13,867 nucleotides of DNA from IMG/VR virus record IMGVR_UViG_2713896778_000031; one strand, 5' to 3'. This stretch comes from a virus. Its lineage: Duplodnaviria; Heunggongvirae; Uroviricota; Caudoviricetes. The notes under the pieces were generated by a model that saw only the letters and a program-made list of their open reading frames with translations, had not been told where the DNA came from and ran no database searches. Positions 1 to 13,867 of the stretch are shown here, piece after piece. Position 1 is the stretch's first letter. Each line of letters opens with the position of its first letter. A program made the position numbers and the translations under genes.

Positions 1-279
1 TAGTCATCCTGTTTACCTCTTTCTCAGGGAGTTTAGTCTCCAGGATTTCCGGGGCGGTTCAGTTTGCGAAAGAATGGGGCTGCGTTAATTAATTTTGTGG
101 ATGGTCGAGTGACAGACGGATTTATCTTGCGCGAAGGTGAGTTTGTCACTTCATTACAGGCACTGAAAGAGATCGGAATAAAAGCAGGCTTTTCAGCTTT
201 TGCAGAAGAATAAACTCATCTACAATCTTGCGCGGGGCTGAACTCCCGCTGAGTAACACCGTGCCACCGGAGAAAACCG

Positions 280-558
280 ATGGCACGCAACGTAAAATAT
301 TACAATTCTGATAATTCGCCCGTTCTTGTCTGCACGCACGAGCGGTATTCTCACGCATTCAAGTCTGAATGGTTCCAACACCCTCCATGCACTGAAGAGC
401 AGGCTGAATGGATAATTCAGTGTTACCGCAGGCGCGGATACGAGGTTAAGAAAGCCCTTAGTCTCGACTACCGTCACTGGATAATCTCAGTCAGATTGCC
501 TTACTCCGAACGCCCACCGCGTCCGTCCCGTACATTCCAGCAACGCATCTGGAGGTAA
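280..558 (+). CDS. Hypothetical small prophage protein (92 aa), immediately upstream of the DUF968 gene
   Basis: ATG ORF with GGAG about 9 nt upstream; stop TAA at 556-558 sits 1 nt before the GTG start of the next gene (operon-like packing). No recognisable motif; function not inferred. Confidence 0.45.
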   Translation: MARNVKYYNSDNSPVLVCTHERYSHAFKSEWFQHPPCTEEQAEWIIQCYRRRGYEVKKALSLDYRHWIISVRLPYSERPPRPSRTFQQRIWR

Positions 559-559
559 C

Positions 560-1553
560 GTGCGGGTATTACTTCGACCTGTTCTGGTACCGGAACTCGG
601 GCTGGTGGTCGTTAAGCCGGGCCGTGAATCCATGCCGGTATTCCACAATACCCGGGTACTGGTGGAGCCGGAACCGAAAAGCATGCGTAATCTGCCGTCC
701 GGGGTCGTTCCTGCCGTTCGCCAGCCGCTGGTGGAAGACAAAACATTGCTGCCGTTTTTCAGTAACGCACGGGTAATTCGTGCTGCTGGTGGTGCTGGTG
801 CATTGTCTGACTGGCTGTTGCGCCATATTAAATCCTGCCAGTGGCCACACGGCGATTATCATCACAGCGAAACCGTTATTCACCGATATGGTACCGGCGC
901 AATGGTGTTGTGCTGGCACTGCGACAACCAGCTGCGTGACCAGACATCNNNNNNNNNNNNNNNNNNNNNNNNNNNNNNNNNNNNNNNNNNNNNNNNNNTT
1001 ATCCTGGTGGGCGGTCCGCAATCAGGTGGCGGACGCGCTACCGGAAGCGGTATTACGTCGCTCGCTGGGATTACCAGCGGAAAAAAACTGCTCGGTGTAC
1101 CGCGAAAGCGACATCGTACCGGGAGAGCAGACCGCCACCAGCATATTGAAACAGCGCACAAAAAATCTTGCACCGTTGCCTCACGCCCACCAGCAACAAA
1201 ACCCATCACAGGAAAAGACGGTGGTAAGCATCACCGTTGATCCAGAGTCTCCGGAATCTTTCATGAAGCTGCCTAAACGTCACCGTTGGGTTAAGGAGAA
1301 ATACACACGCTGGGTTAAGACACAGCCGTGTGCTTGCTGCGGTATGCCAGCCGACGATCCGCATCATCTGATTGGTCACGGGCAGGGCGGAATGGGAACC
1401 AAAGCACATGATCTCTTTGTGTTGCCTTTGTGCAGAAAGCATCACGACGAGCTGCATGCGAATACCGTGGCATTTGAAGAGAAGTATGGCTCCCAGCTGG
1501 AGCTGATATTTCGTTTTATCGATCGTGCGCTGGCAATAGGCGTACTGGCGTAA
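560..1553 (+). CDS. DUF968-family prophage protein (YdfU-like), interrupted by an N-run; reading frame differs on the two sides of the gap
   Basis: GTG start at 560 preceded by GGAGG. The C-terminal part (999-1553) carries a Cys/His cluster (CACCG...HH...H...C...HH...H) that I recall as typical of DUF968 proteins found upstream of Q in Qin-like prophages. The protein-like frame is frame 2 before the N-run and frame 0 after it. Confidence 0.55.
949..998. other. Run of 50 N (masked bases or assembly gap) inside the DUF968 gene
   Basis: Directly visible in the sequence; the flanking coding frames are not compatible with an exactly 50-nt in-frame segment. Confidence 0.95.
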
Positions 1554-1566
1554 GTGGAGAACGAGC

Positions 1567-2301
1567 ATGAACCTTGAAGCTTTACCAAAATATTACTCCC
1601 CAAAATCTCCAAAATTGAGTGATGACGCACCGGCGACAGGCTCGGGTGGTTTAACAATAACAGATGTGATGGCTGCGCAGGGGATGGTGCAGTCGAAAGC
1701 TCCGCTTGGTTTTGCCTTATTCCTGGCAAAAGTTGGTGTTCAGGATCCTCAGTTTGCGATTGAAGGTCTGCTCAATTANNNNNNNNNNNNNNNNNNNNNN
1801 NNNNNNNNNNNNNNNNNNNNNNNNNNNNACCTTGTGAATTTTGCCTTTGCTGATTATTCCAGGTCTGCGGCAAGTAAGGCTCGCTGTGAGTATTGTGCTG
1901 GTACTGGATTTCATAATGTATTGCGCGAAGTGGTGAAACACTCCAGAAGTGGGGAATCTGTTATCAAGGAAGAGTGGGTGAAGGAACTATGTCAGCATTG
2001 CCATGGTAAGGGAGAAGTCAGCACAGCGTGCAGAGGGTGTAAGGGGAAAGGTATTGTCCTGGATGAAAAAAGAACCCGGCTTCATAGCACGCCTGTTTAT
2101 AAGGTTTGTGGGCGTTGCAATGGAAACCGGTTTAGTCGTTTATCAACGACACTGGCGCGGTGTCATGTCCAGAAGCTGGTACCAGACCTGACGGATTATC
2201 AGTGGTACAAAGGATATGCAGATGTCATTGATAAACTGGTTACAAAGTGCTGGCAGGAAGAAGCATATGCTGAGGTGCAATTAAGAAAAGTGACGAGATA
2301 A
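1567..2301 (+). CDS. Late-gene antiterminator Q (phage 82/21-type, QuuQ-like), 244 aa with an internal N-run
   Basis: Position between the DUF968 gene and the lysis cassette; several CxxC pairs (CEYCAGTG, CQHCHGKG, CRGCKGKG, CGRCNG) consistent with a zinc-binding Q protein; size matches Qin QuuQ (about 250 aa). Frame is preserved across the N-run. Confidence 0.7.
   Translation: MNLEALPKYYSPKSPKLSDDAPATGSGGLTITDVMAAQGMVQSKAPLGFALFLAKVGVQDPQFAIEGLLNXXXXXXXXXXXXXXXXXXLVNFAFADYSRSAASKARCEYCAGTGFHNVLREVVKHSRSGESVIKEEWVKELCQHCHGKGEVSTACRGCKGKGIVLDEKRTRLHSTPVYKVCGRCNGNRFSRLSTTLARCHVQKLVPDLTDYQWYKGYADVIDKLVTKCWQEEAYAEVQLRKVTR
1779..1828. other. Run of 50 N (masked bases or assembly gap) inside the Q gene
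   Basis: Directly visible; the coding frame continues unchanged across it. Confidence 0.95.
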
Positions 2302-2440
2302 ATGATTTTCACCGAACGATGGCGACATAACGATTGTATTTTCTAAGGAAACGTGCAAAGAGTTTTCCAATGATGAGCCTTATATGCATACCTGTGGAAA
2401 ATATCAATAAGCCGCGCAGAGTGGTTTTTTTGTGGACATA
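2302..2440 (+). promoter_or_regulatory. Putative late-promoter/qut-like region immediately downstream of Q
   Basis: Lambdoid phages place the late promoter and Q-utilisation site directly after Q (established). A homologous copy of this segment recurs at about 3996-4131 ending in a clean terminator. The exact -35/-10 elements could not be assigned. Confidence 0.3.
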
Positions 2441-2551
2441 AACTTTGTGCAGAACGGTAACCATTATGGTTGCCGTGAATGCAGTTTTTTTACATTGCTG
2501 GCTTTTTTAGATTTGTGTTAGTTATTGATATTAACAAGAAGGGGAAAAGAC

Positions 2552-2653
2552 ATGCTAAAACGGCAGGATATGAAGGAAACGGTTATGCGTGAATGTTCCA
2601 GTGTGATTAACCATATCATCTGGAGAAGCCATCCTGATGCAGGGAAGAGGTAA
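2552..2653 (+). CDS. Small ORF (33 aa), candidate small protein
   Basis: ATG preceded by AAGGGGAAAAG; no recognisable motif; too short to support by composition. Confidence 0.2.
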   Translation: MLKRQDMKETVMRECSSVINHIIWRSHPDAGKR

Positions 2654-3062
2654 CAGTAACGCGCATCAATCAGGCTGCAAATAAATGGCTTACGCCGGAA
2701 ATCTGGCTATCGATGTATTACCGGTTTGTTACCCATGAAGAAAATTAAGGTGATAACGAAACTGATTTTATAGGTGTCTTGTCAGAGTGTTGCGATGAAA
2801 CTTGTGTTGGCAGTGCAGGGAAAACAGTAGGATGAAAATTATAAATTGCTTTAAATGAGCTTGATTTTCCTCATGTTATGAGATATTTGTCTTATATTGC
2901 TGGTTAATTATGAAAGTTTTTGTAAATCTACAGCAATAAAATCCATATTAATTAAAGCACTAGATGCGTTTCTGATTTGTGCATGAAACATACATATCAT
3001 AATGATTAATTGCATCTATAATTACAGATACAGCATTGTGCTGTTAAAAAACTGGAGTCCCC

Positions 3063-3170
3063 ATGAATACATTATATGTAAGTGATTCAAATGAAAAATC
3101 TCATGACAGGAATAAAAACAATGAGGATAGTAAGGGTAAGGATAATAAAAAAGACAACCGGAAAGAGTAA
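3063..3170 (+). CDS. Small ORF (35 aa) encoding a very hydrophilic K/N/D-rich peptide
   Basis: GGAG 5 nt upstream of the ATG; lies in an AT-rich segment; a strong + strand terminator follows at 3377-3405. Overlaps an antisense ORF, so coding status is uncertain. Confidence 0.25.
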   Translation: MNTLYVSDSNEKSHDRNKNNEDSKGKDNKKDNRKE

Positions 3171-3205
3171 ATAATCTTTCCTGCATAAAAATACTAGGGT
3201 GGAAT

Positions 3206-3325
3206 ATGTCAGAACATCCAGATTTTGATGACCGTAAGCCTGATGATGAGCCCGTTGAGCGTCCTGATGAGGGGCAACCATTGAACCCTTTTTCACCGGA
3301 TGATAAAAGAGATCCTATTATTTAG
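3206..3325 (+). CDS. Small ORF (39 aa) encoding an acidic, proline-rich peptide (MSEHPDFDDRKPDDEPVERPDEGQPLNPFSPDDKRDPII)
   Basis: GGGTGG upstream of the ATG; a + strand intrinsic terminator about 50 nt downstream; tandem with the previous small ORF. Confidence 0.3.
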   Translation: MSEHPDFDDRKPDDEPVERPDEGQPLNPFSPDDKRDPII

Positions 3326-3376
3326 ATATAGCAGAATATAGCCGTTTAAAGTAGGTTGTGTTTTGTTGCTATCCTT

Positions 3377-3405
3377 AAACCACCTCCACAGGAGGTGGTT
3401 TTTTA
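3377..3405 (+). terminator. Rho-independent terminator
   Basis: 11-bp perfect stem (AAACCACCTCC / GGAGGTGGTTT) with a 3-nt loop, followed by a T-run. Confidence 0.7.
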
Positions 3406-3461
3406 CTAATGGAACATTAATTGGCAGATGTGATTGTGTACGACTTATGGGAGGCTTAAGA

Positions 3462-3647
3462 TTATTTTCTGCCAATAATAAAACCAAGCGTTAACCCTAT
3501 GCTTAGAGCAACCACCACGCTAGTCAGTGGATAATTTCTAAATTTATCTTTAACGTTTTCTTTGCCTCCCTGCAAAGCATCGTCAGCACATGATGCATAT
3601 TTTTTGACAGTATTAACTATTTCGTTTTCAGATTGATTTGAAGTCAT
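3462..3647 (-). CDS. Small membrane-anchored protein (61 aa) with a DUF883 (ElaB/YqjD)-like C-terminal anchor
   Basis: ATG at 3647 with AGGAC 7 nt upstream; the longer 94-aa form in the ORF track starts at a TTG. The C-terminus NYPLTSVVVALSIGLTLGFIIGRK matches the pattern I recall for ElaB/YqjD tail anchors (hydrophobic helix ending in basic residues). Confidence 0.4.
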   Translation of the reverse strand: MTSNQSENEIVNTVKKYASCADDALQGGKENVKDKFRNYPLTSVVVALSIGLTLGFIIGRK

Positions 3648-3831
3648 GTTTGAAGTCCTGATGTTAAGTGGCTTTTTAATTATAGCAGATATGCTTTCAA
3701 TGATAGGGCGGAGAGTTGTTATTGAGGTGATACTATGACCACTCAATCAACATTACATAAAATGACGTTTACTCCTGTTTGGCACAGTAGCAGAATTTTG
3801 CTTCTGCTACTGAAGTCGCTTTAGCACTAGA

Positions 3832-3995
3832 ATATGCAGATGGATAAAGCAGTTCAGCGTATGTACTGCGTCATGCATATCGGTCTTGCAGATATGACGA
3901 GAAGGGGAGACAAGGTGTGTGTAATGTAGAAGTCTTTAAAGTGCTGTCTGGGATAACTCTATGCTGAAGTGCAATTGATAAAAGTAACACGATAA
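3832..3995 (+). pseudogene. Diverged remnant of a second Q-gene 3-prime end
   Basis: Nucleotide similarity to the end of the intact Q gene (ATATGCAGATG..., AAAGTGCTG..., ATGCTGAAGTGCAATTGATAAAAGTAACACGATAA versus ATGCTGAGGTGCAATTAAGAAAAGTGACGAGATAA). Translates to ...YAEVQLIKVTR-stop, matching the Q C-terminus YAEVQLRKVTR, but has an in-frame stop just upstream. Confidence 0.5.
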
Positions 3996-4101
3996 AGGTT
4001 TTTCAATGAAGATGGTAACGTGATGCTTGCATTTTTCAAAAAAATATGGATAAAGTTTTTTCAACGATGGGCTTTGTATACCCGACGTTAAGAAAAAGTA
4101 G

Positions 4102-4131
4102 AAAACCCGCTGATGAGCGGGTTTTGTGCTT
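4102..4131. terminator. Rho-independent terminator (tR-prime-like), possibly bidirectional
   Basis: 9-bp stem AAAACCCGC / GCGGGTTTT with loop TGATGA, followed by TTTTGTGCTTT; an A-run on the other side gives a T-run on the minus strand. Sits about 110 nt after the Q-remnant stop, where lambdoid tR-prime would be expected. Confidence 0.6.
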
Positions 4132-4417
4132 TAAATGGGGCAATGGTAATGTTGAATCTCATCCCGGGACTCATGTCTGTTAACTTATTATTTAGCTGGT
4201 GACTTGGTTATTTGCCTGATGTTTAAAATGTTTTCTTCCAGTACAATGTCCCTAAACACAATGAGTCTGCTTATTATATTATTAGCAGAGCTATTACGGC
4301 CAAAGTACAGCATAAGCTTTTAAAGCCAATCAACCAGTCATCAAGACAGACGGGGTTATTCATAAAAACTCTCCATGTGTGATCCGATGGGGCCTGAAAT
4401 TAAAGCTTTAATATAGC

Positions 4418-4630
4418 TCATGAAAGGTAAACATTGGCAGCTGAAGGGCCACGCAGACCATTTATCCGGCAAAATTCCACGCGTAATCCGGTGGTAATTT
4501 CTTCTGCATCGCGGAGATTGAGCGCTGAAACATGAAGCTGGACATCGATACGACCATCGGATGGGGTGATAAGACCCTTGCCGCTTTTGCCGTCAAAGGT
4601 TTTGACAATTCCTGTCATTTTACGGGACAA
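4418..4630 (-). CDS. cspF: Cold-shock-domain protein, CspF/CspH-type (70 aa)
   Basis: [13 protein letters not shown]...[16 protein letters not shown] is a CspA-family fold with the TFD variant typical of CspF/CspH; divergent from cspB as in the Qin prophage. Confidence 0.8.
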
Positions 4631-4884
4631 AAAAATTCCTTAACACTGATAACTTGGCGCACTATACACACGTTCCTGAAGAAAGCTATAGTGTTTTGAT
4701 GGGGTTGAAGATGGCTGGATGTCTAAAATAAACATTGCTTCATATGTTCAACTATGCGTTAATGATTGCGTCGGTTTGAAGAACAGACGATATACGAAGT
4801 AGTTTACTAAAGCAGTTCTCATTTCAGGTGTTATTCACTTATTCCTTCTTTGAGTCTCTCCAATTAAGTACGAAGTCGTTTCTG

Positions 4885-4930
4885 TTATGCAAACCATTTA
4901 TGCCGAAAGGCTCAAGTTAAGGAATGTAGA
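4885..4930 (+). promoter_or_regulatory. Conserved csp-type 5-prime UTR element upstream of cspB
   Basis: GCCGAAAGGCTCAAGTTAAGGAATGTAGA directly before the ATG closely resembles the conserved cspA-family leader/RBS region as I recall it. Confidence 0.5.
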
Positions 4931-5146
4931 ATGTCAAATAAAATGACTGGTTTAGTAAAATGGTTTAACGCTGATAAAGGTTTCGGCTTTATTTCTCCTG
5001 TTGATGGTAGTAAAGATGTGTTTGTGCATTTTTCTGCGATTCAGAATGATAATTATCGAACCTTATTTGAAGGTCAAAAGGTTACCTTCTCTATAGAGAG
5101 TGGTGCTAAAGGTCCTGCAGCAGTAAATGTCATCATTACTGATTAA
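4931..5146 (+). CDS. cspB: Cold shock protein CspB-type (71 aa)
   Basis: [21 protein letters not shown]...VFVHFSAIQ carries the RNP1/RNP2 motifs of CspA-family proteins; paired divergently with cspF and located beside the lysis cassette as in Qin. Confidence 0.8.
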
Positions 5147-5257
5147 AATTCATCGCTCGTCTGTATACGATAACGAAGAAGGCTGATGCCTGAGTAGAGA
5201 TACGGACAGAGTAGTGAATATTGGATCTCTTTAATAAAAAGTAAGGAGGTCCAATAC

Positions 5258-5293
5258 ATGAAACAATGGCCAGCATATTTGGCAAAATCTTAA
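5258..5293 (+). CDS. Tiny ORF (11 aa, MKQWPAYLAKS) with a near-perfect Shine-Dalgarno sequence
   Basis: TAAGGAGGT followed by a 7-nt spacer and ATG; could equally be a leader peptide or a truncated gene start. Very short, so low confidence. Confidence 0.2.
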   Translation: MKQWPAYLAKS

Positions 5294-5427
5294 TCAGGAA
5301 AAGTATGCTAACCATTGGGGTGAAGTGCAGGTTTGCTGCATGAATAGTTTCACAACAGAAGCTAACTGCTGGCATCGCAAAACAAAGTGCGTAAGTGGAT
5401 GACTCCCACAAAAAGCACCACAATCTC

Positions 5428-5451
5428 AAACCCGCTCAGGCGGGTTTTTTA
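5428..5451 (+). terminator. Rho-independent terminator
   Basis: 8-bp stem AAACCCGC / GCGGGTTT with loop TCAG, followed by TTTTTT. Confidence 0.7.
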
Positions 5452-5509
5452 TTATCTGCTTTAAATATATTATTAAAATATAAAAAATACTTGTTACTAA
5501 TAAAATCAA

Positions 5510-5680
5510 TCAGGCTACAGCTTTAAGATTTGTCTGGAATACTTTGTTGCAATGAGGGCAGATCAAAAGGGCACCTTTTTGTACTCTTGAAAAACTGTGT
5601 TCTGACTCTTGGGTGCAGTTTGGGCAGGAACATTTAACGAGATAATTACGGCGTGATTTTGAGTCTTTACGTTCTGACAT
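5510..5680 (-). CDS. Small zinc-ribbon protein (56 aa; CxCPxC ... CPHC), possibly YnfU-type
   Basis: ATG at 5680 with AGGA 7 nt upstream (the 73-aa track ORF uses an upstream alternative start). Two Cys pairs about 20 residues apart. The link to Qin YnfU is from memory of size and context only. Confidence 0.45.
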   Translation of the reverse strand: MSERKDSKSRRNYLVKCSCPNCTQESEHSFSRVQKGALLICPHCNKVFQTNLKAVA

Positions 5681-5899
5681 AGGCTTTTCCTGTATAAATG
5701 GCCGTATACAGTACACTAAATATGAAAACATTTCTCGTATTATTATTTTATATATGACTTTCTTTCAAAATAATTACCCACATTTTTAATGTGTATGTTT
5801 TTTTAGCGCCGTTGAGAACAACGTGTGCTGTCAAAACTACCCCGTAGACTCCGATCTTTTCAAACATATTGCACCATCCGTGTACATCGGGGTGAGGAT

Positions 5900-6115
5900 A
5901 TGAAATCAATGGATAAGTTAACAACAGGTGTTGCCTATGGCACATCGGCGGGTAATGCTGGTTTCTGGGCATTGCCGTTACTCGATAAAGTAACTCCGTC
6001 ACAGTGGGCTGCAATCGGTGTGCTGGGTAGCCTGGTTTTTGGCCTGCTGACGTATCTGACAAATCTTTATTTCAAGATTAAAGAAGACAGGCGTAAGGCT
6101 GCGAGAGGAGAGTAA
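5900..6115 (+). CDS. Class II holin/pinholin of the phage 21 S type (EssQ-like), with the dual start MKSM
   Basis: [23 protein letters not shown]...[38 protein letters not shown] closely matches the S21 holin as I recall it: two transmembrane segments, charged C-terminus, two in-frame starts (5900 and 5909). The upstream 5825 start in the track is unlikely. Confidence 0.8.
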
Positions 6116-6119
6116 TCCA

Positions 6120-6308
6120 ATGACTCAAGACTATGAACTGGTTGTGAAAGGAGTCCGTAATTTTGAGAATAAAGTTACGGTAACTGTAGCCTTACAGGAC
6201 AAAGAACGCTTTGACGGTGAAATTTTTGACCTGGATGTCGCCATGGACCGTGTTGAAGGAGCTGCGCTGGAGTTTTATGAGGCAGCAGCCAGAAGGAGCG
6301 TCCGGTAA
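6120..6308 (+). CDS. Small protein between holin and endolysin (62 aa, YdfR-like by position)
   Basis: Tightly packed between the holin stop (6115) and the endolysin, at the position YdfR occupies in Qin; no motif recognised. Confidence 0.45.
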   Translation: MTQDYELVVKGVRNFENKVTVTVALQDKERFDGEIFDLDVAMDRVEGAALEFYEAAARRSVR

Positions 6309-6427
6309 GTCTTCCTGGAAGTAGCAGAAAAATTGTCAGAAAAAGTTGAGTCTTATCTGCAGCATCAGTACTCCTTTAAGATTGAAAATCCTGCCAATAA
6401 GCACGAGCGTCCTCATCATAAATATCT

Positions 6428-7455
<1,028 letters not shown>

Positions 7456-7816
7456 GGTAATATTAAATCGGAACATTTACATCGCGGAATGTAAAATTTA
7501 AATAAAAAGGACTCTTCCATGAGCCAAAATTCCTGAAATCTTAAGGGTAAGAAAAGGTCTTAATCAGAATGACACGTTTTATTAATAAATAAAGCTATTC
7601 TTTCATTGCTGTGTTTTTCTTTACAAAAGTAATCCTTGCTATGGGTGGTTAATCATGCGTTAATGGTGTTCTGGTTTGTTACAAATTTATCTGAAGCAGT
7701 CATTGTTATAATTTTATTATTTGTACCTCTTGGGATTTCCTTGTTGGTTTTTCTCTCTGATATTTTTTTTTCGGACCATTCTGCCCAAGGGCTAATTTCT
7801 TCAAAAGGTAATAATT

Positions 7817-8029
7817 ATGTCTAACAAAATGACTGGTTTAGTGAAATGGTTTAACCCTGAAAAAGGTTTTGGTTTCATCACGCCGAAAGATGGCAGCAAA
7901 GATGTGTTTGTCCATTTCTCAGCAATTCAGAGCAACGATTTCAAAACATTAACTGAGAATCAGGAAGTTGAATTTGGTATTGAGAACGGACCTAAAGGTC
8001 CTGCCGCTGTTCATGTAGTGGCGCTTTGA
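7817..8029 (+). CDS. cspI: Cold shock protein CspI-type (70 aa)
   Basis: [38 protein letters not shown]...; third CspA-family paralogue, located downstream of the lysis cassette as in Qin. Confidence 0.8.
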
Positions 8030-8057
8030 GGTAGACAATATTACAAACCATATTCAC

Positions 8058-8228
8058 TTTAGATGCCCGTGTTGTCATGGTTCCCAGTATAGAACATCAT
8101 CTTTTGATGTTTCTGACATGAATCCTTTCGGGGCAAAATGTATCTTTTGTAAATCAATGATGATTACATTTGATAATATTTCACAATACTTAAATGCCAG
8201 CCGTCTGTCGTTGGATTTAAAAAAGTGA
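8058..8228 (+). pseudogene. Small zinc-ribbon ORF (FRCPCCHG ... CIFCKS) lacking a canonical start codon upstream of the first Cys pair
   Basis: Frame is open from 8019 to the TGA at 8226-8228 and encodes two Cys pairs about 20 residues apart, but the only in-frame ATG (8118) lies after the first pair. No terminator separates it from cspI; a strong terminator follows it. Confidence 0.3.
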
Positions 8229-8233
8229 AAATG

Positions 8234-8258
8234 AAGGCTCCTTCGGGAGCTTTTTTGC
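8234..8258 (+). terminator. Rho-independent terminator
   Basis: Stem AAGGCTCC / GGAGCTTT around a TTCG tetraloop, followed by a T-run. Confidence 0.7.
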
Positions 8259-8300
8259 TTGGTGTCTATTCGATGGATACTCACATACTACGGTAACATC

Positions 8301-8531
8301 ATGAAAAAAATCATAGTTTTTTTTAACTCTGAACCAGCAGTGGTAGTGCCAGCGATGACTGGAGTTAACACCATCATGCGTGAATATCCAAATGGCGAAA
8401 AAACACACCTTACTGTAATGGCCGCAGGGTTTCCATCTCTGACCGGAGATCATAAAGTCATTTATGTAGCCGCGGATCGACATGTTACTTCAGAAGAAAT
8501 TCTGGAAGCAGCAATAAGGCTCTTGAGTTGA
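8301..8531 (+). CDS. Hypothetical prophage accessory protein (76 aa)
   Basis: ATG at 8301 (MKKIIVFF...); the track start at 8259 is a TTG inside the preceding terminator. No motif recognised. Confidence 0.4.
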   Translation: MKKIIVFFNSEPAVVVPAMTGVNTIMREYPNGEKTHLTVMAAGFPSLTGDHKVIYVAADRHVTSEEILEAAIRLLS

Positions 8532-8699
8532 TTTGATGCTATTGCATTGATAATTCAGGAAAATTCTCTTTGTCTGTTTGTGTAAAATTTAGACTATCGT
8601 ATGTTGATTATTGCGATGTTTCATCTTATCTTTTACACGTTTGCACCATATAATCGACTTACTGTGTAACTGGAAAGTCATAACAGACTAAAAGAGGAA

Positions 8700-8876
8700 A
8701 TGATGAATATTGAAGACTTAAAAACAAAAACAGAAGCAGATATTTCTGAATATATAACAAAAAAAATTATTGAACTTAAGAAAAAGACCGGGAAAGAAGT
8801 TACCAGTATTCAGTTTACCGCACGGGAAAAAATGACGGGTCTTGAAAGCTATGATGTCAAGATTAATTTAATCTGA
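8700..8876 (+). CDS. gnsB: GnsB-type small protein (58 aa; GnsA/GnsB family)
   Basis: Not in the ORF track (under 60 aa). MMNIEDLKTKTEADISEYITKKIIELKKKTGKEVTSIQFTAREKMTGLESYDVKINLI matches the GnsA/GnsB family as I recall it; AAGAGGAAA RBS; terminator at 8903-8928. Confidence 0.75.
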   Translation: MMNIEDLKTKTEADISEYITKKIIELKKKTGKEVTSIQFTAREKMTGLESYDVKINLI

Positions 8877-8902
8877 TGTATTCAATAATAAAATTTATCC
8901 AT

Positions 8903-8928
8903 AAACCCCGTTTTTACGGGGTTTTGTT
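8903..8928. terminator. Rho-independent terminator between convergent gnsB and ydfO
   Basis: Stem AAACCCCG / CGGGGTTT with loop TTTTTA, followed by TTTTGTT. Confidence 0.65.
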
Positions 8929-9027
8929 ATATTTGAATGGTTCCGAATATCTAAATCACAATTGTTGATGGTTTTTATTAAACCAATGCAGTCCGGCTCA
9001 GGAGTGAGAGAAGCCGGACGTTATGGT

Positions 9028-9438
9028 TTAGCGTGGTAAGATCTGTGTAGTTTTCTGGATGCTTTCAGTAAATAGTAATGAGTTATCAAAGGCATAGTAA
9101 TATCTTTGGTGTTCCTGGATATTTGTAACCCATCGGAAAACTCCTGCTTTAGCAAGATTTTCCCTGTATTGTTGAAATGTGATTTCTTTTGATTTCAACT
9201 TATTATAGGAGGTCTCTATAAGATGTTTGTTTCTGGAGAATTTAACATTTACAACCTTTTTGAGTCCTTTTACTAACACTATGTTGTCGTTTTCTAACAC
9301 AATGTGAATATTATCTGTGGCTAAATAGTAAATATAAAGTGAGACATTGTGACGTTTTAGCTCAGAATAAAATAATTCACAGTTTAAATCTTTACGCACT
9401 TGATCGAATATTTCTTTAAAAATGGCAGCCTGAGCCAT
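9028..9438 (-). CDS. ydfO: DUF1398-family prophage protein (YdfO-like), about 136 aa
   Basis: Sequence and context match Qin YdfO as I recall it. The start at the second ATG (9438, [11 protein letters not shown]...) has GAAGG 7 nt upstream; the track start at 9453 lacks an RBS. Confidence 0.65.
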
Positions 9439-9738
9439 TGGTAAACCTTCCATGTGATACGATGGCGCGTAGTTTGCATTATCGTGTTTATTGTTTCAAT
9501 CTGGTCTGACCTCTTTGTGTTTTGTTGATGATTTATGTCAAATATTAAGCCTGTTTTTAATGAATAGTGTTGATTGCGTAACAAAGTTGAGCCTTGCTGG
9601 CATCCAGGAGGGATATGCAACCGACAGATGTATGTAAGGTCGATGTACTCAAACTTTCATACTTTTCCTCTTTTATGCAGAAAGATTTGAAGTAATATTT
9701 TAACCGCTAGATGACGAGCAAACGCATGGAGCGACAAA

Positions 9739-9945
9739 ATGAATAAAGAACAATCTGCTGATGAACTCTCGTTGGATCTGATTCGTGTAAAAAATATGCT
9801 TAATAGCACCATTTCTATGAGTTACCCGGATGTTGTAATTGCATGTATAGAACATCAGGTGTCTCTGGAAGCATTCAGGGCAATTGAGGCAGCGTTGGTG
9901 AAGCACGATAAGAATTCGAAGGATTATTCCCTGGTGGTTGACTGA
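9739..9945 (+). CDS. Hypothetical small protein (68 aa)
   Basis: GGAG 7 nt upstream of the ATG; the overlapping antisense ORF 9700-9906 lacks comparable signals. No motif recognised. Confidence 0.4.
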
Positions 9946-9965
9946 GCACCATAACTGCTAATCAT

Positions 9966-10133
9966 TCAAACTATTTCACCTGTGACAGAGTCAATATCGC
10001 ATTCTGTCACTGTCAGGCTAATACAGAGCTGCAATTCAACTACTGCAATGTCCTCGTAATTAGGTGAATTTACAATATCGTCCTGTTCGGATGCCGGCTG
10101 CATTGCTGAAGATGAGGCATTTATGGTTCGCAT
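9966..10133 (-). CDS. Hypothetical small acidic ORF (55 aa), not in the ORF track
   Basis: ATG at 10133 with GAGGGG upstream; translated by hand (MRTINASSSAMQPASEQDDIVNSPNYEDIAVVELQLCISLTVTECDIDSVTGEIV). Weak support. Confidence 0.2.
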   Translation of the reverse strand: MRTINASSSAMQPASEQDDIVNSPNYEDIAVVELQLCISLTVTECDIDSVTGEIV

Positions 10134-10310
10134 ATTTTCCCCTCATGCTCGTCAGTCCTGTGCGTAGGAAGAAACAGGACACTCACACTAATTTGTGTGG
10201 GCATGCTGTGATGTCCTTCTGAATTATTCCTATGCCATTATGTAAAGCGCTGTATCAGATGCTCGTCACGGCTGTCAGGCTGTCGGGTCCTCCCGGTGGG
10301 GGCCCCTGCC

Positions 10311-10330
10311 ACGGGGCGGGAGCGTCGCGG
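10311..10330. other. cosN-like cohesive-end site upstream of the small terminase gene
   Basis: ACGGGGCGGGAGCGTCGCGG resembles lambda cosN (ACG / GGGCGGCGACCT / CGCGGG as I recall it): identical flanks and 8 of 12 positions in the overhang region. It lies about 180 nt upstream of the Nu1-like gene, with a GGGGCCCC palindrome just before it. Confidence 0.4.
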
Positions 10331-10509
10331 AAAAAGGCTAGTTTTTGCATTTCCATGGCGGCGGCAGCATGTTTGGTAATTTATTGATAATTAAAAGTTA
10401 TTTCTCTTTTTACCTGTACAATATTTTTTTCCCCCTGTCATTAGACCAGTTTACAATTAATTGAAATATATAAATAAACATGATTTTCACCTGCCAGATG
10501 GAGTTGCTT

Positions 10510-11037
10510 ATGTCAAATGTGAGCGGGATCGGTGATGCTTATTACTGGAGTGTTTTTAAAATCGCTGAGGCCTTTGGGCTTCACCGGGACACAGTAAAAA
10601 AACGGCTTCTCGCGGCCAACACTCCTGTGGCTGCGACTGTCAGGGGGAACCCCGTTTACGCCCTGCAGCATGTCGGGCCAGCCCTGTTTAGTGTGAAGCA
10701 TGAGGCAGCAGACTCTGTTCATGATCCATCCCGTATGGAGCCGAAAGAGAGAAAGGACTGGTACCAGTCTGAAAATGAAAGGATCAAGCTGGAAAAGGAG
10801 CAGCGAAAACTCATCCCCGTTGATGAAGTAGTCATCGTCTATTCGTCCATGAGAAAGGCTGTCGTCCAGGTTCTGGAGACAATTCCGGATGTTCTTGAAC
10901 GCGATTGCGCCCTGACTCCTCAGGCCGTCGGCGTTGTACAGCAGGCAATTGATGACCTGCGATACACTCTTCAGGAAAAATCCTACGAGGCTTGTGCTGC
11001 TGAATTAATTCCTGATGAGGAAGGAGAGAGTCTCTAG
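10510..11037 (+). CDS. Terminase small subunit, Nu1-like (NohA/NohQ-type)
   Basis: Immediately precedes the large-subunit gene and follows the cos-like site; similar in size to lambda Nu1 (181 aa) with an N-terminal helix-turn-helix-like segment; GGAG 6 nt upstream of the ATG at 10510. Confidence 0.6.
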   Translation: MSNVSGIGDAYYWSVFKIAEAFGLHRDTVKKRLLAANTPVAATVRGNPVYALQHVGPALFSVKHEAADSVHDPSRMEPKERKDWYQSENERIKLEKEQRKLIPVDEVVIVYSSMRKAVVQVLETIPDVLERDCALTPQAVGVVQQAIDDLRYTLQEKSYEACAAELIPDEEGESL

Positions 11038-11045
11038 GAGGAATA

Positions 11046-12083
11046 ATGGGTTTTTCATCAGCCCGAAATTTGGGAAGGGACATATCGGCAGGATTTTCCC
11101 CACCACGTCGCATGCCGATTTCGGAGGCTGTTAAAAAATTCATGCGTGTTCCCAAGGGGGCTGGTAACTCGGTGCCATGGGATCCTGAACTGACACCCTA
11201 CATCATTGAGCCCATGAACTGCCTGGCATCGCGTGAATACGATGCGGTGATTTTTGTTGGTCCTGCGCGAACAGGGAAGACCATTGGTCTGATCGATGGA
11301 TGGATTGTCTATACCATCGTTTGCGATCCTTCGGACATGCTCGTTGTGCAGATGACCGAAGATAAGGCCCGCGAGCATTCTAAAAAGCGCCTCGACAGAA
11401 CGTTCAGAAGCAGTGCGGCGGTAAAGAAAAGAATGAGTCCACGTCGTAACGACAATAATGTCCATGATAAGACGTTCAGGGATGGCTCGTTCCTTAAAAT
11501 TGGTTGGCCCTCGGTCAACATTATGTCGTCGTCGGATTACCGGTTTGTCGCCTTAACCGATTACGACCGTTTTCCGGAGAATATCGACAGCGAGGGTGAT
11601 GGTTTCTCCCTGGCCTCAAAACGTACCACCACATTTATGTCCGCCGGGATGACTCTGGTGGAGAGCTCGCCGGGACGTGACATCTGCGACAGCAAATGGC
11701 GACGTAAGTCGCCTCATGAAGCGCCACCGACGACTGGTATTCTTTCCCTTTACAATCGTGGTGACCGCCGCCGCTGGTACTGGTCATGTCCGCACTGCGG
11801 TGAATATTTTCAGCCAGCCATGGATGCCATGACCGGCTACCGTAATGAACCGGATCCCTTTAAAGCCAGTGAGGCGGCGTATCTACTTTGCCCGCACTGC
11901 AGCGGCATTATCACTGCGGAGAAAAAGCGTGAGCTCAATAGTGCAGGAGTCTGGTTGCGTGAAGGTCAGGTCATTGATCGTAACGGCAACGTTTCCGGTG
12001 AACCGCGCCGCTCCCGTATCGCCAGTTTCTTGGATGTAGGGTACATTTCTTACCTGTTTGTATGTTCTGGTGTCGTTTCATAG
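11046..12083 (+). pseudogene. Terminase large subunit (lambda gpA-like), N-terminal ATPase portion only; truncated at about 12042
   Basis: AGGAGG RBS; Walker A-like VGPARTGKT; CPHCGEYFQ matches lambda gpA CPHCGEEQY; GVWLREG aligns to gpA GIWTRDG. About 330 gpA-like residues are followed by 14 unrelated residues and a stop, against 641 aa for gpA, so the C-terminal nuclease half is missing. Confidence 0.75.
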
Positions 12084-12200
12084 TCTTTTCAATGAGTTGT
12101 GATTTTATGAGTTTCCTCTCTTTGCTTGATAATGAGTTAGTTTATCGCTTGTTATTGGCTTGAATGGACTACATGACGGACTAAAAAATGAGGGCGATAG

Positions 12201-13439
12201 ATGTCGGTAAAGCCATTAACCGTGACTGAAGTTAAGGGGATGAAACCACGTGAAAAGGACTATGCCGTTTATGATGGGTTCGGTTTATTGCTGAATGTGA
12301 GTAAAGCCGGTGGGAAAGTGTGGCGTTTCCGTTATAGCCATCCGATAACGAAGAAACGGCAGACATACACGATAGGACGTTTTCCTGAATTCTCACTCGC
12401 GGAAGCACGGGAAGTACGTGATGAACTTCGGCGAATGATTGCACGTGGAGTTGATCCAGTGACGGAGAAGAAAAATCGTAAAATTGAGATGTCACTAAAA
12501 AATCTACAGACATTTGAAGCTGTTGCTAATGCATGGTTCGCTTTTAAAAAGGGATCTGAATTGCGGAAACCTACGCTGTATAATATCGAATATGAAGTAT
12601 ACAAATATCTTGTTCCTTTCTTTGGTAAGTACAGTATAGAAAAAATTACAGCACCAGTAGCTATTAATGCTCTGGATGCCGTATCCGATAAGAATGCGTT
12701 GCAAAAAAAATTAATATCAAGATTAAATGAAATTATGAATTATGCTGTAAATTGTGGAGCATTGAAAGCAAATCCATTACTTAAGATAAAGACTGCATTC
12801 ACAGGAAAGAAAAATAAATCATTAGCAGCACTACCTGTTGAAAGATTGCCTGAATTTCTGAGCTGGTGGGATAGTGTGCCTCATACCTATCAAATAGCTC
12901 ATAATGCACTTTTATTCCAGATATTGACAATGGTCAGGCCAGGTGAGGCGATTAAAGCAGAGTGGTCAGAGATTGATTTTGATTCTGGCTTGTGGATTAT
13001 CCCCGCGCATAAAATGAAATGCCATCGTGAACATGTTGTTCCCTTGTCATCACAGGCTATTAGTATCCTCAGAACAATGCAGGAAATAAAAAGAGGGCGT
13101 TATGTGTTTTTTTCCTCCAGAACAAAAGATGCGCCTATGGGGAGGAATACTATCAAGACCCCAATTGCTGCCAGTAAGTTCAAAGGGATTGTAACGTTAC
13201 ATGGTTTTCGTTCAATGTGGAGTACGCTTTTAAATGAGGAGGGATTTAACCCCGATGTAATCGAGGCTGCATTGGCGCATAAAAGTGGTGATAAAATAAG
13301 AGATATTTATAATAGAACTATTTATCTAGAACAGCGTAAGATCATGATGCAATGGGTCGGTGATTTTTTTGATGATGCGAGAAAAGGGGTAATTAATAGA
13401 TCCGGTGGTATGAAAGGTTTAAGAGTAGTAAATGGTTGA
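12201..13439 (+). CDS. Tyrosine recombinase, P4-type integrase (412 aa)
   Basis: N-terminal DUF4102-like arm domain (LTVTEVKGMKPREKDYAVYDGFGLLLNV...WRFRY) and a C-terminal catalytic region with HGFRS, LAH and a tyrosine near the end (IYNRTIY), typical of P4-family integrases; GAGGG RBS. Confidence 0.9.
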   Translation: MSVKPLTVTEVKGMKPREKDYAVYDGFGLLLNVSKAGGKVWRFRYSHPITKKRQTYTIGRFPEFSLAEAREVRDELRRMIARGVDPVTEKKNRKIEMSLKNLQTFEAVANAWFAFKKGSELRKPTLYNIEYEVYKYLVPFFGKYSIEKITAPVAINALDAVSDKNALQKKLISRLNEIMNYAVNCGALKANPLLKIKTAFTGKKNKSLAALPVERLPEFLSWWDSVPHTYQIAHNALLFQILTMVRPGEAIKAEWSEIDFDSGLWIIPAHKMKCHREHVVPLSSQAISILRTMQEIKRGRYVFFSSRTKDAPMGRNTIKTPIAASKFKGIVTLHGFRSMWSTLLNEEGFNPDVIEAALAHKSGDKIRDIYNRTIYLEQRKIMMQWVGDFFDDARKGVINRSGGMKGLRVVNG

Positions 13440-13452
13440 GGAGGTTCAGCAA

Positions 13453-13656
13453 ATGAATACCAATGAAGATATTTTATTTACTAAAGACGTAATGAAAATC
13501 TTGCGATATGGAGCAATGAGTGCATTCATCAATTTCTGGAAAGATGAGAATAATGGTTTTCCTCAGCCGTTCAGAATTGGACGACGACATACCTGGCACC
13601 GTAGAGATGTAGAAGCATGGTTAGATAAACAACGAGAACAGGCCAATCCCCACTAA
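13453..13656 (+). CDS. AlpA-family transcriptional regulator/excisionase-like protein (67 aa)
   Basis: GGAGG 8 nt upstream of the ATG at 13453; small HTH protein ending in the AlpA-like motif ...HRRDVEAWL; sits directly downstream of the integrase. Confidence 0.7.
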   Translation: MNTNEDILFTKDVMKILRYGAMSAFINFWKDENNGFPQPFRIGRRHTWHRRDVEAWLDKQREQANPH

Positions 13657-13669
13657 TAATATCTTTCAT

Positions 13670-13696
13670 ACCCCGCGTGCAATGCGGGGTTTTTTG
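13670..13696 (+). terminator. Rho-independent terminator after the AlpA-like gene
   Basis: Stem ACCCCGC / GCGGGGT with a 7-nt loop, followed by TTTTTT. Confidence 0.65.
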
Positions 13697-13715
13697 TATG
13701 TGAGGTAAAAAAGAA

Positions 13716-13867
13716 ATGAATAAAAATATTGCCGTGACGGGCAAGGGTGACGCACGTCATGTAAAAAAATTCTGTGATTTTCGTGATCTGGTCGTTCTGC
13801 GCTTTGATAGTGTGAACGTTCGCGTGGTGTATCTGAACGGCGATCCGTGGTTTGTTGCAAAGGATGT
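13716..13867 (+). CDS. Bro-N domain protein (antirepressor-like), N-terminal part; runs off the window end
   Basis: GAGGT RBS; MNKNIAVTGKGDARHVKKFCDFRDLVVLRFDSVNVRVVYLNGDPWFVAKDV carries the Bro-N signature (R-V...-G-x-PWFVAKDV). Confidence 0.55.
   Translation, partial: MNKNIAVTGKGDARHVKKFCDFRDLVVLRFDSVNVRVVYLNGDPWFVAKD

Follow-up and report, generated by a model that had tools for sequence, protein, structure and literature searches.

A phage satellite inserted in the terminase gene of a Qin-like prophage of E. coli O121:H19, with an integrase from an apparent second clade that seeks phage late genes

We examined a stretch of DNA of 13,867 nucleotides (nt) from a Caudoviricetes virus record (IMG/VR IMGVR_UViG_2713896778_000031; "the window" means this whole stretch). 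Toward its right end, a gene for the large subunit of a gpA-type terminase (terL) breaks off, and an integrase gene (int), a gene for a small helix-turn-helix (HTH) protein, and the start of a Bro-N gene follow on the same strand (Table 1). We read these genes as the left end of a phage satellite of the phage-inducible chromosomal island (PICI) type. Window positions 11000-13867 match the chromosome of Escherichia coli O121:H19 strain FWSEC0006 at 100%, and the remaining window also aligns to that chromosome, except for two runs of Ns. For the sequence beyond the window, we used 42.9 kb of the FWSEC0006 chromosome (L001), in which a coordinate is the window coordinate plus 9001 (from window position 1829 on).

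Table 1. Features in the right-hand part of the window. Positions are window coordinates; HE-PICI, helper-embedded PICI.
Feature	Position	Strand	Basis or remark
Cos-like region of the host (Qin-like) prophage	10284-10359	+	about 150 nt upstream of the DUF1441 gene; matches two stretches of the island
DUF1441 protein gene	10510-11037	+	RefSeq annotation; sits where a small terminase subunit (Nu1 analogue) is expected
terL 5' part, gpA-type, ATPase domain, residues 1-328	11046-12029	+	Pfam GpA_ATPase; cut by the insertion
Left 1.8 kb of the 10,430-nt satellite	12030-13867	+	full element at L001 21031-31460
attL core: extra T, then TGGATG (codons W329-M330)	12030-12036	+	comparison of attL, attR, and empty sites at six loci
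Satellite DNA translated out of frame as the tail of the terL frame	12037-12083	+	not a functional coding segment (translation)
Doubled T-rich motif GTTTATCGCTTGTTATTGGC, candidate arm-type integrase binding site	12140-12159	+	k-mer analysis of reconstructed attP; function by analogy with HE-PICIs
Tyrosine integrase, 412 residues, P4/CP4-57-like architecture	12201-13439	+	Pfam Arm-DNA-bind_3, Phage_int_M, Phage_integrase
AlpA/Vis-like small HTH protein, 67 residues, presumed excisionase/activator	13453-13656	+	HTH_17, motif, position
Intrinsic terminator between the alpA-like and Bro-N genes	13670-13696	+	9-bp stem at 13670-13690 with 6 G-C pairs, then a T-run
Start of the Bro-N gene, 193 residues in full, first of the "Bro zone"	13716-13867	+	Pfam Bro-N, E = 1e-18; PHROG anti-repressor, E = 1e-85 (full protein, L001)

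A first-pass annotation of the window had proposed that an int-alpA satellite begins where the terminase gene is cut off. The features that it listed (a terminase fragment, an integrase, an HTH gene, a terminator, the start of a Bro-N gene, and no tRNA gene) are all present, and our search of the whole window for tRNA or tmRNA genes found none. The open reading frame (ORF) of the truncated terL spans 11046-12083. Residues 40-303 match GpA_ATPase (E = 8e-81), and the nuclease domain is absent according to Pfam. Genuine terminase sequence stops at 12029, or at 12036 if the core of the attachment site is counted. This places the junction at 12030-12036, rather than at about nt 12042 as first described, and the ORF then continues for 17 out-of-frame codons (LDVGYISYLFVCSGVVS*) instead of the 14 unrelated codons first counted. 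The reported gap of about 160 nt before int holds if it is measured from the core (165 nt, 37% G+C); from the stop codon of the truncated ORF to the start codon of int, the distance is 117 nt. The stretch from the terL fragment to int has no predicted terminator.

In the complete genome, the missing 3' part of terL (GpA_nuclease, E = 2e-81) is found at L001 31461-32585, where it resumes 10,430 nt past the break. The rejoined halves give a TerL of 702 residues, the junction reads ...RIASFWMEGPAAAF..., and codons F328-W329-M330, where the ATPase domain gives way to the nuclease domain, mark the split. A 443-nt query made from the two flanks has a 100% match in the uninterrupted terL of one genome, that of strain 2015C-3107. 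The prophage at this empty site matches the O121 prophage at 100% along 12,030 nt of its left flank and at 99.98% along 11,408 nt of its right flank, with the same protein accessions and the same scar from an IS3 insertion sequence (IS). Furthermore, related integrases are found at the homologous position of terL in Salmonella, Klebsiella, and other E. coli. Among 5,426 complete E. coli genomes, 96 contain int (full-length match in 88); for a query of the terL fragment plus int, 84 genomes gave matches to 80% or more of its length, and in all 84 int directly follows the terL fragment. Overall, the insertion of the satellite into terL is true and exact, in the same orientation as terL and the late operon. 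An artifact of assembly is unlikely, as the 3' half and the empty site turn up again in many independently sequenced complete genomes. Extending the sequence downstream and looking for an empty site, both suggested by the first-pass annotation, thus bore out its proposal.

A direct repeat of 10-25 bp was also anticipated at the junction. A repeat is present but imperfect, being only TGGATG, and its second copy, at attR (L001 31461-31466), lies outside the window. This common core emerged from aligning attL and attR of five copies of the satellite, which have differing flanks, with three empty sites. In other copies, the truncated terL ends in FWM* at the core, with a stop codon that comes from the satellite; in the window, an extra T before the core (12030) makes the ORF run on through its 17 junk codons instead. 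We considered whether this T was a mutation at attL and rejected the idea because the copies from O45:H2 (L101 21508) and O157:H7 (L102 23416) have the same T beside the core at attR. The T therefore appears to be part of a variant attP, and strand exchange seems to be shifted in register by 1 nt from one integration event to another. In a third variant (L007), the base here is a C. The reconstructed attB is cgccagtttcTGGATGgagggg, and attP is acttcttc[T]TGGATGtagggtac. As attP brings in nothing to replace the 3' part of terL, the terminase stays split for as long as the satellite is in place, and loss of the satellite would restore a complete terL. Within attP, k-mer analysis places TTTATCGCTT 98 nt ahead of the core start and again 110 nt past that point. 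Each occurrence is part of a doubled T-rich motif in the same orientation (TTTTTTGC-TT-TTTATCGC and TTTATCGC-TTG-TTATTGGC, at about -109/-98 and +110).

All of the major genes of the satellite are intact. Beginning at the left, it carries int, the AlpA-like HTH gene, the terminator, and the Bro-N gene with an antisense YlcI/YnfO gene; then an Icd-like gene, several translationally coupled small ORFs, and DUF4222; then a primase-helicase (D5_N/DUF5906/Pox_D5), inverted and direct repeats, a small ORF, and a single-stranded DNA-binding protein (SSB); and finally a cos-like sequence, a small ORF, a fusion of a ClpP-type protease to a major capsid protein, a second cos-like sequence, and a 93-residue ORF. 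The int, alpA-like, Bro-N, primase, SSB, and capsid genes are all on the + strand, like terL. The protease-capsid fusion is 52% identical to the host prophage's own. Within the 10.4 kb, we found no genes for portal, connector, terminase, tail, lysis, or HNH proteins. The defense cargo that the first-pass annotation had envisaged did not materialize: PADLOC found no system among ten small proteins of the island, and we dropped the idea for the O121 copy. A search of the whole island against Rfam (E of 0.1 or less) gave no match, hence no immunity RNA of the C4/isrK type could be assigned.

The cos-like region of the host prophage contains CACGGGGCGGGAGCGTCGCGGAAAAAGG, which we take to resemble cosN of phage lambda. 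Two stretches of the island (L001 28046-28120 and 30581-30643) match this region at 79%. The cos core of copy 2 is identical to the cos of the helper at locus L005 and is one indel away from the cos of the Shiga toxin 1a (Stx1a) prophage of O157; deposited Stx phages have a cos region that matches copy 2 at 86%. The full cos-like sequences (L001 28019-28130 and 30556-30667) are co-oriented and flank the capsid gene of the satellite. In a related copy (L007), the second cos-like sequence precedes a captured DUF1441 (terS-like) gene, and the second sequence may be a remnant of late-gene capture.

Satellites that lie in, and are co-oriented with, the late genes of a prophage were described as HE-PICIs by Tommasini, Mageeney, and Williams in 2023 (PMC10111431). 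The founder, Eco567.11capE of E. coli NRG857c ("11capE"), was reported to excise late, after replication of the helper-satellite composite, by quantitative PCR and sequencing. That study required an integrase to score at least 400 bits against the 11capE integrase, mapped 491 elements to 14 sites, and found HE-PICIs in about 5% of E. coli genomes. It presented them as the work of a single clade of integrases that is peculiarly drawn to prophage late genes. The first-pass annotation had called the target unusual for such an integrase. This is correct in that no tRNA or tmRNA gene is involved, but a target in a prophage late gene is what defines the HE-PICI class. We conclude that window 12030-13867 is very probably the left end of a 10,430-nt PICI-type satellite that was inserted by its own tyrosine integrase in the gpA-type terL of a lambdoid, Qin-like prophage, i.e., a helper-embedded PICI.

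The satellite resembles the HE-PICIs in its size (about 10-11 kb), in its four zones (int/alpA, Bro, replication, and late), in its co-oriented insertion in a late gene, in the cos-like site of its late zone, in carrying a homologue of a helper head gene, in having an attP without replacement sequence, and in the doubled T-rich motif on each arm of attP. Its primase is 82% identical to that of 11capE. Also, its AlpA-like protein and that of 11capE have the motif GFPxP..IG...W...V.AW in common, and the alpA-like gene directly follows int in all of the relatives that we examined. There are also differences. The integrase scores just 86 bits against the 11capE integrase (25% identity), compared to the 400-bit cutoff. 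The target is a gpA-type terminase, cut at the boundary of GpA_ATPase and GpA_nuclease, whereas the terminase sites that we met in the paper are Terminase_1-family genes (132 and 245/246); probing the supplements of the paper with "gpa" and with the core, att, and end sequences of this element gave no match, and the main site table was available in part. The arm motif of this element, TTTATCGC/TTATTGGC, lies about -98 and +110 from the core start, while the published one is TGTATTGC, at -81 and +132 from the attP center; tgTGTATTGCantgTGTATTGCa, the exact doubled motif published for those two positions, is absent, and the different doubled T-rich motif is present instead. Finally, the paper reports C4/isrK immunity RNAs in the Bro zones of some PICIs, to which this island has no Rfam match.

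Other classes of satellite fit less well. Like the classical PICIs of Gram-negative bacteria (such as EcCICFT073), this element has an int-alpA-primase backbone, a lambdoid helper of the cos type, a capsid gene in the late zone, and a length of about 10 kb. However, classical PICIs sit in a chromosomal housekeeping gene, apart from the helper, and act in trans, whereas this element lies in its helper's own packaging gene; every full-length copy that matched the terL-plus-int query in complete E. coli genomes is preceded by a terL fragment (84 genomes at 80% or more of the query, versus 88 with a full-length int). Satellite P4 and the CP4-57-type islands, whose P4-family integrases use tRNA or ssrA genes, share with it the combination of Arm-DNA-bind_3 with a catalytic domain and an Icd-like gene, and its relatives at about 40-45% identity include integrases named CP4-57 or IntA in their sources. 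In contrast to P4 and CP4-57, it has no tRNA or tmRNA target, no P4 genes for capsid size or late control, and a lambdoid rather than a P2-like helper. Capsid-forming PICIs (cf-PICIs) have their own portal, connector, and HNH/TerS/TerL genes, while this satellite has just the protease-capsid fusion. There is also a likeness to active-lysogeny switches, in which an integrative element splits a gene and its precise excision restores it. The difference is that the split gene belongs to another mobile element, the helper phage, and the beneficiary of the switch is presumably the satellite and not the cell, a view also taken for HE-PICIs (PMC10111431).

By analogy, the life cycle of the satellite might run as follows. 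Induction of the helper would lead to Q-antiterminated transcription from the late promoter of the prophage, which would pass the lysis genes, terS, and the truncated terL and reach int and the alpA-like gene, and Q-modified polymerase would read through the terminator that follows. Int and the AlpA-like protein would then excise the satellite, which would repair terL late in infection. The circular satellite would replicate using its own primase-helicase, the iteron-like repeats after the primase gene, and its SSB. The helper's terminase would package it from the satellite's own cos, and the heads may include, or be altered by, the protease-capsid fusion. The host prophage of the O121 copy lacks int and an early region, and its cos is unlike that of the satellite, so this copy probably depends on another lambdoid prophage in the cell.

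Several observations weigh against reading the element as a working helper-embedded PICI. The AlpA-like label, which the first-pass annotation had also proposed and which position and motif uphold, is weak by profile (HTH_17 E = 0.004, which is under the Pfam cutoff, and no NCBIfam match). The two cos-like copies are in the same orientation and 2.5 kb apart, which is awkward for packaging of unit length unless just one of them is active, and the cos of the O121 host prophage differs from them. That prophage is defective, with no repressor or replication genes in its annotation. The extra T at attL is not in the empty site, and if excision exchanged strands to the right of the T, terL would be left frameshifted; if the original exchange were exactly reversed, the gene would be restored all the same. 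Lastly, a small ORF of the satellite is annotated as "frameshifted" in every copy that we examined, including a divergent one (L001 24795-24994, L005 17740-17939, L102 16750-16949, and L006 16692-16891); this may be a conserved feature (a programmed frameshift or a mis-annotation) and not decay.

If only the window is considered, just the left junction is visible, and the prophage has other IS-mediated scars, so a deletion or rearrangement might have joined a terminase-truncated prophage to a separate integrase island from a tRNA site. The first-pass annotation had offered such a deletion as the alternative, and had also allowed for a terminase that is naturally short. Both are refuted by the exact 3' half of terL downstream of the island and by the near-isogenic empty site, where terL is intact at 702 residues. 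The occurrence of the same core in different prophages and species, the position of int behind the terL fragment in all 84 matching genomes, and the lack of a tRNA gene are further points against a deletion, and we give it practically no credence. A P4-like satellite or a cf-PICI, instead of a classical or helper-embedded PICI, would account for the P4-type architecture of the integrase, the Icd-like gene, the D5-type primase, and the protease-capsid fusion. The first-pass annotation had in part taken this view, and as regards the architecture of the integrase it was right. The integrase scores 325 bits against NCBIfam PRK09692, which is under the cutoff of 434. However, the hijacking module is of the PICI type. 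Pfam and PHROG scans of the island's ORFs found no homologues of psu, sid, delta, or epsilon (very divergent ones could escape these profiles, which were not dedicated to P4). Without its own portal, connector, HNH, and terL genes, the satellite cannot build a complete head or package alone, and its replication module has a counterpart in a published HE-PICI at 82% identity. We consider a P4-like satellite or a cf-PICI to be very improbable.

The satellite could also be an immobile relic that no longer excises and is decaying along with a defective host prophage, either neutrally or because the broken terminase keeps the prophage harmless. The early side of the host prophage is strongly degraded in the RefSeq annotation of L001 (a truncated int, an exonuclease gene cut by IS3, adjacent copies of IS66, and a truncated rem). 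The first-pass annotation had inferred that the insertion disables packaging by the host prophage; terL is indeed split, but the prophage was already crippled by IS elements and deletions, so it did not owe its inactivation to the insertion. The mismatch of the two kinds of cos and the extra T at attL fit a relic as well, and many HE-PICI helpers are noted to look truncated in the published account, which speaks of "abandoned" HE-PICIs (PMC10111431). On the other hand, the major genes of the satellite are intact, it differs at one base position from a copy in an O157:H7 Stx1a prophage (see below), and the many lambdoid prophages of enterohemorrhagic E. coli (EHEC) could supply functions in trans, as reported for strain Sakai (PMC2669165). 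Furthermore, the prophage occurs in an O121-like strain with no satellite and a chimeric terL that is correctly restored, which argues for recent site-specific excision. A relic is possible, but we think it unlikely, and we return to the helper-embedded PICI and its distribution.

The satellite is 99.99% identical over its full length in O157:H7 strain ECP19-198, where it lies in the terL of the Stx1a prophage (L102, which is NZ_CP066759.1 1739463-1766858; the island is at L102 12987-23415). The terL of ECP19-198 shares 72.8% identity with that of the window in its 5' half, and its 3' half is a 100% match. Four O157:H7 genomes have an unbroken stretch from stx1A to int. Of the genomes listed, at least 56, including Sakai (prophage Sp15) and EDL933, have the same Stx1a prophage, with a 100% match up to the core and no match thereafter. 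(In all, 115 genomes matched at least 80% of the stx1A-int query; we confirmed an intact terL directly in Sakai alone, whose Sp15 is described with an intact terminase [PMC2669165].) The satellite has recently spread among EHEC prophages, and its insertion is site-specific and apparently reversible. As a side observation, the Stx1a prophage's own protease/capsid gene is broken by IS1203/IS629 in both ECP19-198 and Sakai, and the satellite's fusion is intact. A literature search for a terminase-embedded satellite in Shiga toxin-producing E. coli or O157 turned up only the HE-PICI paper and citations of it. Another Sakai prophage, Sp7, is described as a chimera of lambdoid and P4-like parts with a P4-like Int, Vis, and an alpha-like gene (PMC2669165); it might be a decayed helper-embedded satellite.

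Intact terL genes are of three kinds if their two halves are labeled separately: the Qin-type gene of NRG857c is A+A', the gene of Sakai Sp15 is C+B, and the gene at the empty site of 2015C-3107 is A+B (A' and B are 74% identical). In the A+B gene, the first difference between A and C is 1 nt before the core and the first difference between B and A' is 3 nt after it, which puts the switch within TGGATGga. (The reference points are L002 12211 for 2015C-3107, L105 14506 for Sakai Sp15, and L003 20205-20216 for NRG857c.) The empty site could be the ancestral, unoccupied state, but a chimera that switches at the core is the product expected from recombination between attL(A) and attR(B), and so we read the 2015C-3107 site as the product of precise excision. 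This suggests that the att sites of the satellite, or the satellite itself, mediate the exchange of prophage arms. Strain 2015C-3107 also has an occupied site, with a copy of the satellite that differs over the first 2.5 kb (95.8% identity). The flanks of that site (C' and D) are not joined in any intact terL. Hopping of the element between two prophages within the 2015C-3107 clone was considered and is unsupported, as no intact C'+D terL was found above 88% identity.

A protein search with the integrase returned a graded series of relatives, and we examined the genomic contexts of a sample of them (on both sides for the gpA cases and on the upstream side for the others). The sampled relatives, with 44-77% identity, adjoin terminase, capsid, or tail genes. 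Two of them are at the same site: a Salmonella relative (P0004, 76% identity) lies behind DUF1441 and a 333-residue GpA_ATPase fragment, and a Klebsiella quasipneumoniae relative (P0019, 55%) lies behind Nu1 and a 334-residue fragment. In E. coli TUM9812 (65%, DNA-level), a lambda-type terL is cut at the homologous codons, with the core CACATCTGGAC, by a satellite that has lambda-type E/D capsid genes. A second site is seen in Lelliottia (P0011, 61%), where gpA is cut after about 195 residues and the remainder is 11 kb downstream. (In this Lelliottia amnigena locus, L100 of GCA_016770995.1, the parts are at 9318-9905 and from 21026 onwards; the cut is inside the ATPase domain, and the satellite has lambda-type E, D, and C [S49 protease] head genes.) Upstream of the remaining integrases, we found a truncated major capsid gene (Raoultella P0044, 52%), a Terminase_2 small subunit gene followed by an uncalled gap (E. 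coli P0035, 49%), a Mu-F/Pa193-type head module (E. coli P0043, 50%), a sheath-initiator (baseplate) gene (Enterobacter P0049, 49%), and tail genes (Providencia P0057, 44%). The contexts so far thus comprise two gpA-type terL sites, a truncated major capsid gene, a position after a Terminase_2 small subunit gene, and tail/baseplate clusters.

None of the best 120 relatives scores above 105 bits against the 11capE integrase. In a quick neighbor-joining tree, with the 11capE integrase set as the outgroup, the relatives cluster together, next to integrases that are named CP4-57 or IntA in their sources. Judging from these sequences, this looks like a second clade of integrases that seek late genes. 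A scan of species-representative genomes found relatives with at most 40% identity (marine and Pasteurellaceae), which is uninformative because the E. coli representative does not have the element. Among deposited phage genomes, none has the element, and there was just the match of about 200 nt to the cos region of Stx phages and a match to the primase; the phage matches to Int in tblastn did not exceed 39% identity.

We lean slightly towards a broader reading in which helper embedding evolved in, or was acquired by, a second clade of integrases that is unrelated to the published one, is related to CP4-57/IntA, has members with 44-99% identity to this integrase, and seeks phage late genes. As parts of the same reading, the member in the Stx1a prophage could gate or reduce the production of Stx1 phage, and the att sites or the satellite may serve as portable crossover points that join the arms of lambdoid prophages, giving chimeric terminase genes and hybrid prophages. 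The satellite itself is of a published kind. What is new is a terL site that appears to be unreported, an integrase clade unrelated to the published one, the polymorphism of the Stx1a prophage, and the chimera at the core. If there is a second unrelated clade, this would suggest that selection, and not a peculiarity of a single group of enzymes, underlies the attraction to late genes; the satellite would gain late expression driven by the helper and a hold on the helper's packaging, and the published census would be an underestimate. A satellite that splits the terminase gene in the Stx1a prophage of some O157:H7 strains and in related prophages of O121, O45, O145, and O111 could affect the production or transfer of Stx phages, and a natural pair of occupied and empty sites is available in EHEC. 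The chimeric terL with its breakpoint at the core hints that satellites help to reshuffle prophage arms.

The runs of Ns in the window are each exactly 50 long, at 949-998 (in ydfU, DUF968) and 1779-1828 (in ydfT, antiterminator). The complete genome has 106 and 68 nt in their place; the runs come from gaps in the assembly or from masking and have no biological meaning. The host prophage (window 1-12029, which is L001 8928-21030, plus sequence upstream) is cryptic, lambdoid, and Qin-like, with cspF/cspB/cspI, essQ, rrrQ, rzpQ, and gnsB. Beyond the satellite, on the right, its late region is like that of Sp15, and the Sp15 homologue of its DUF1441 gene is annotated as a terminase small subunit.

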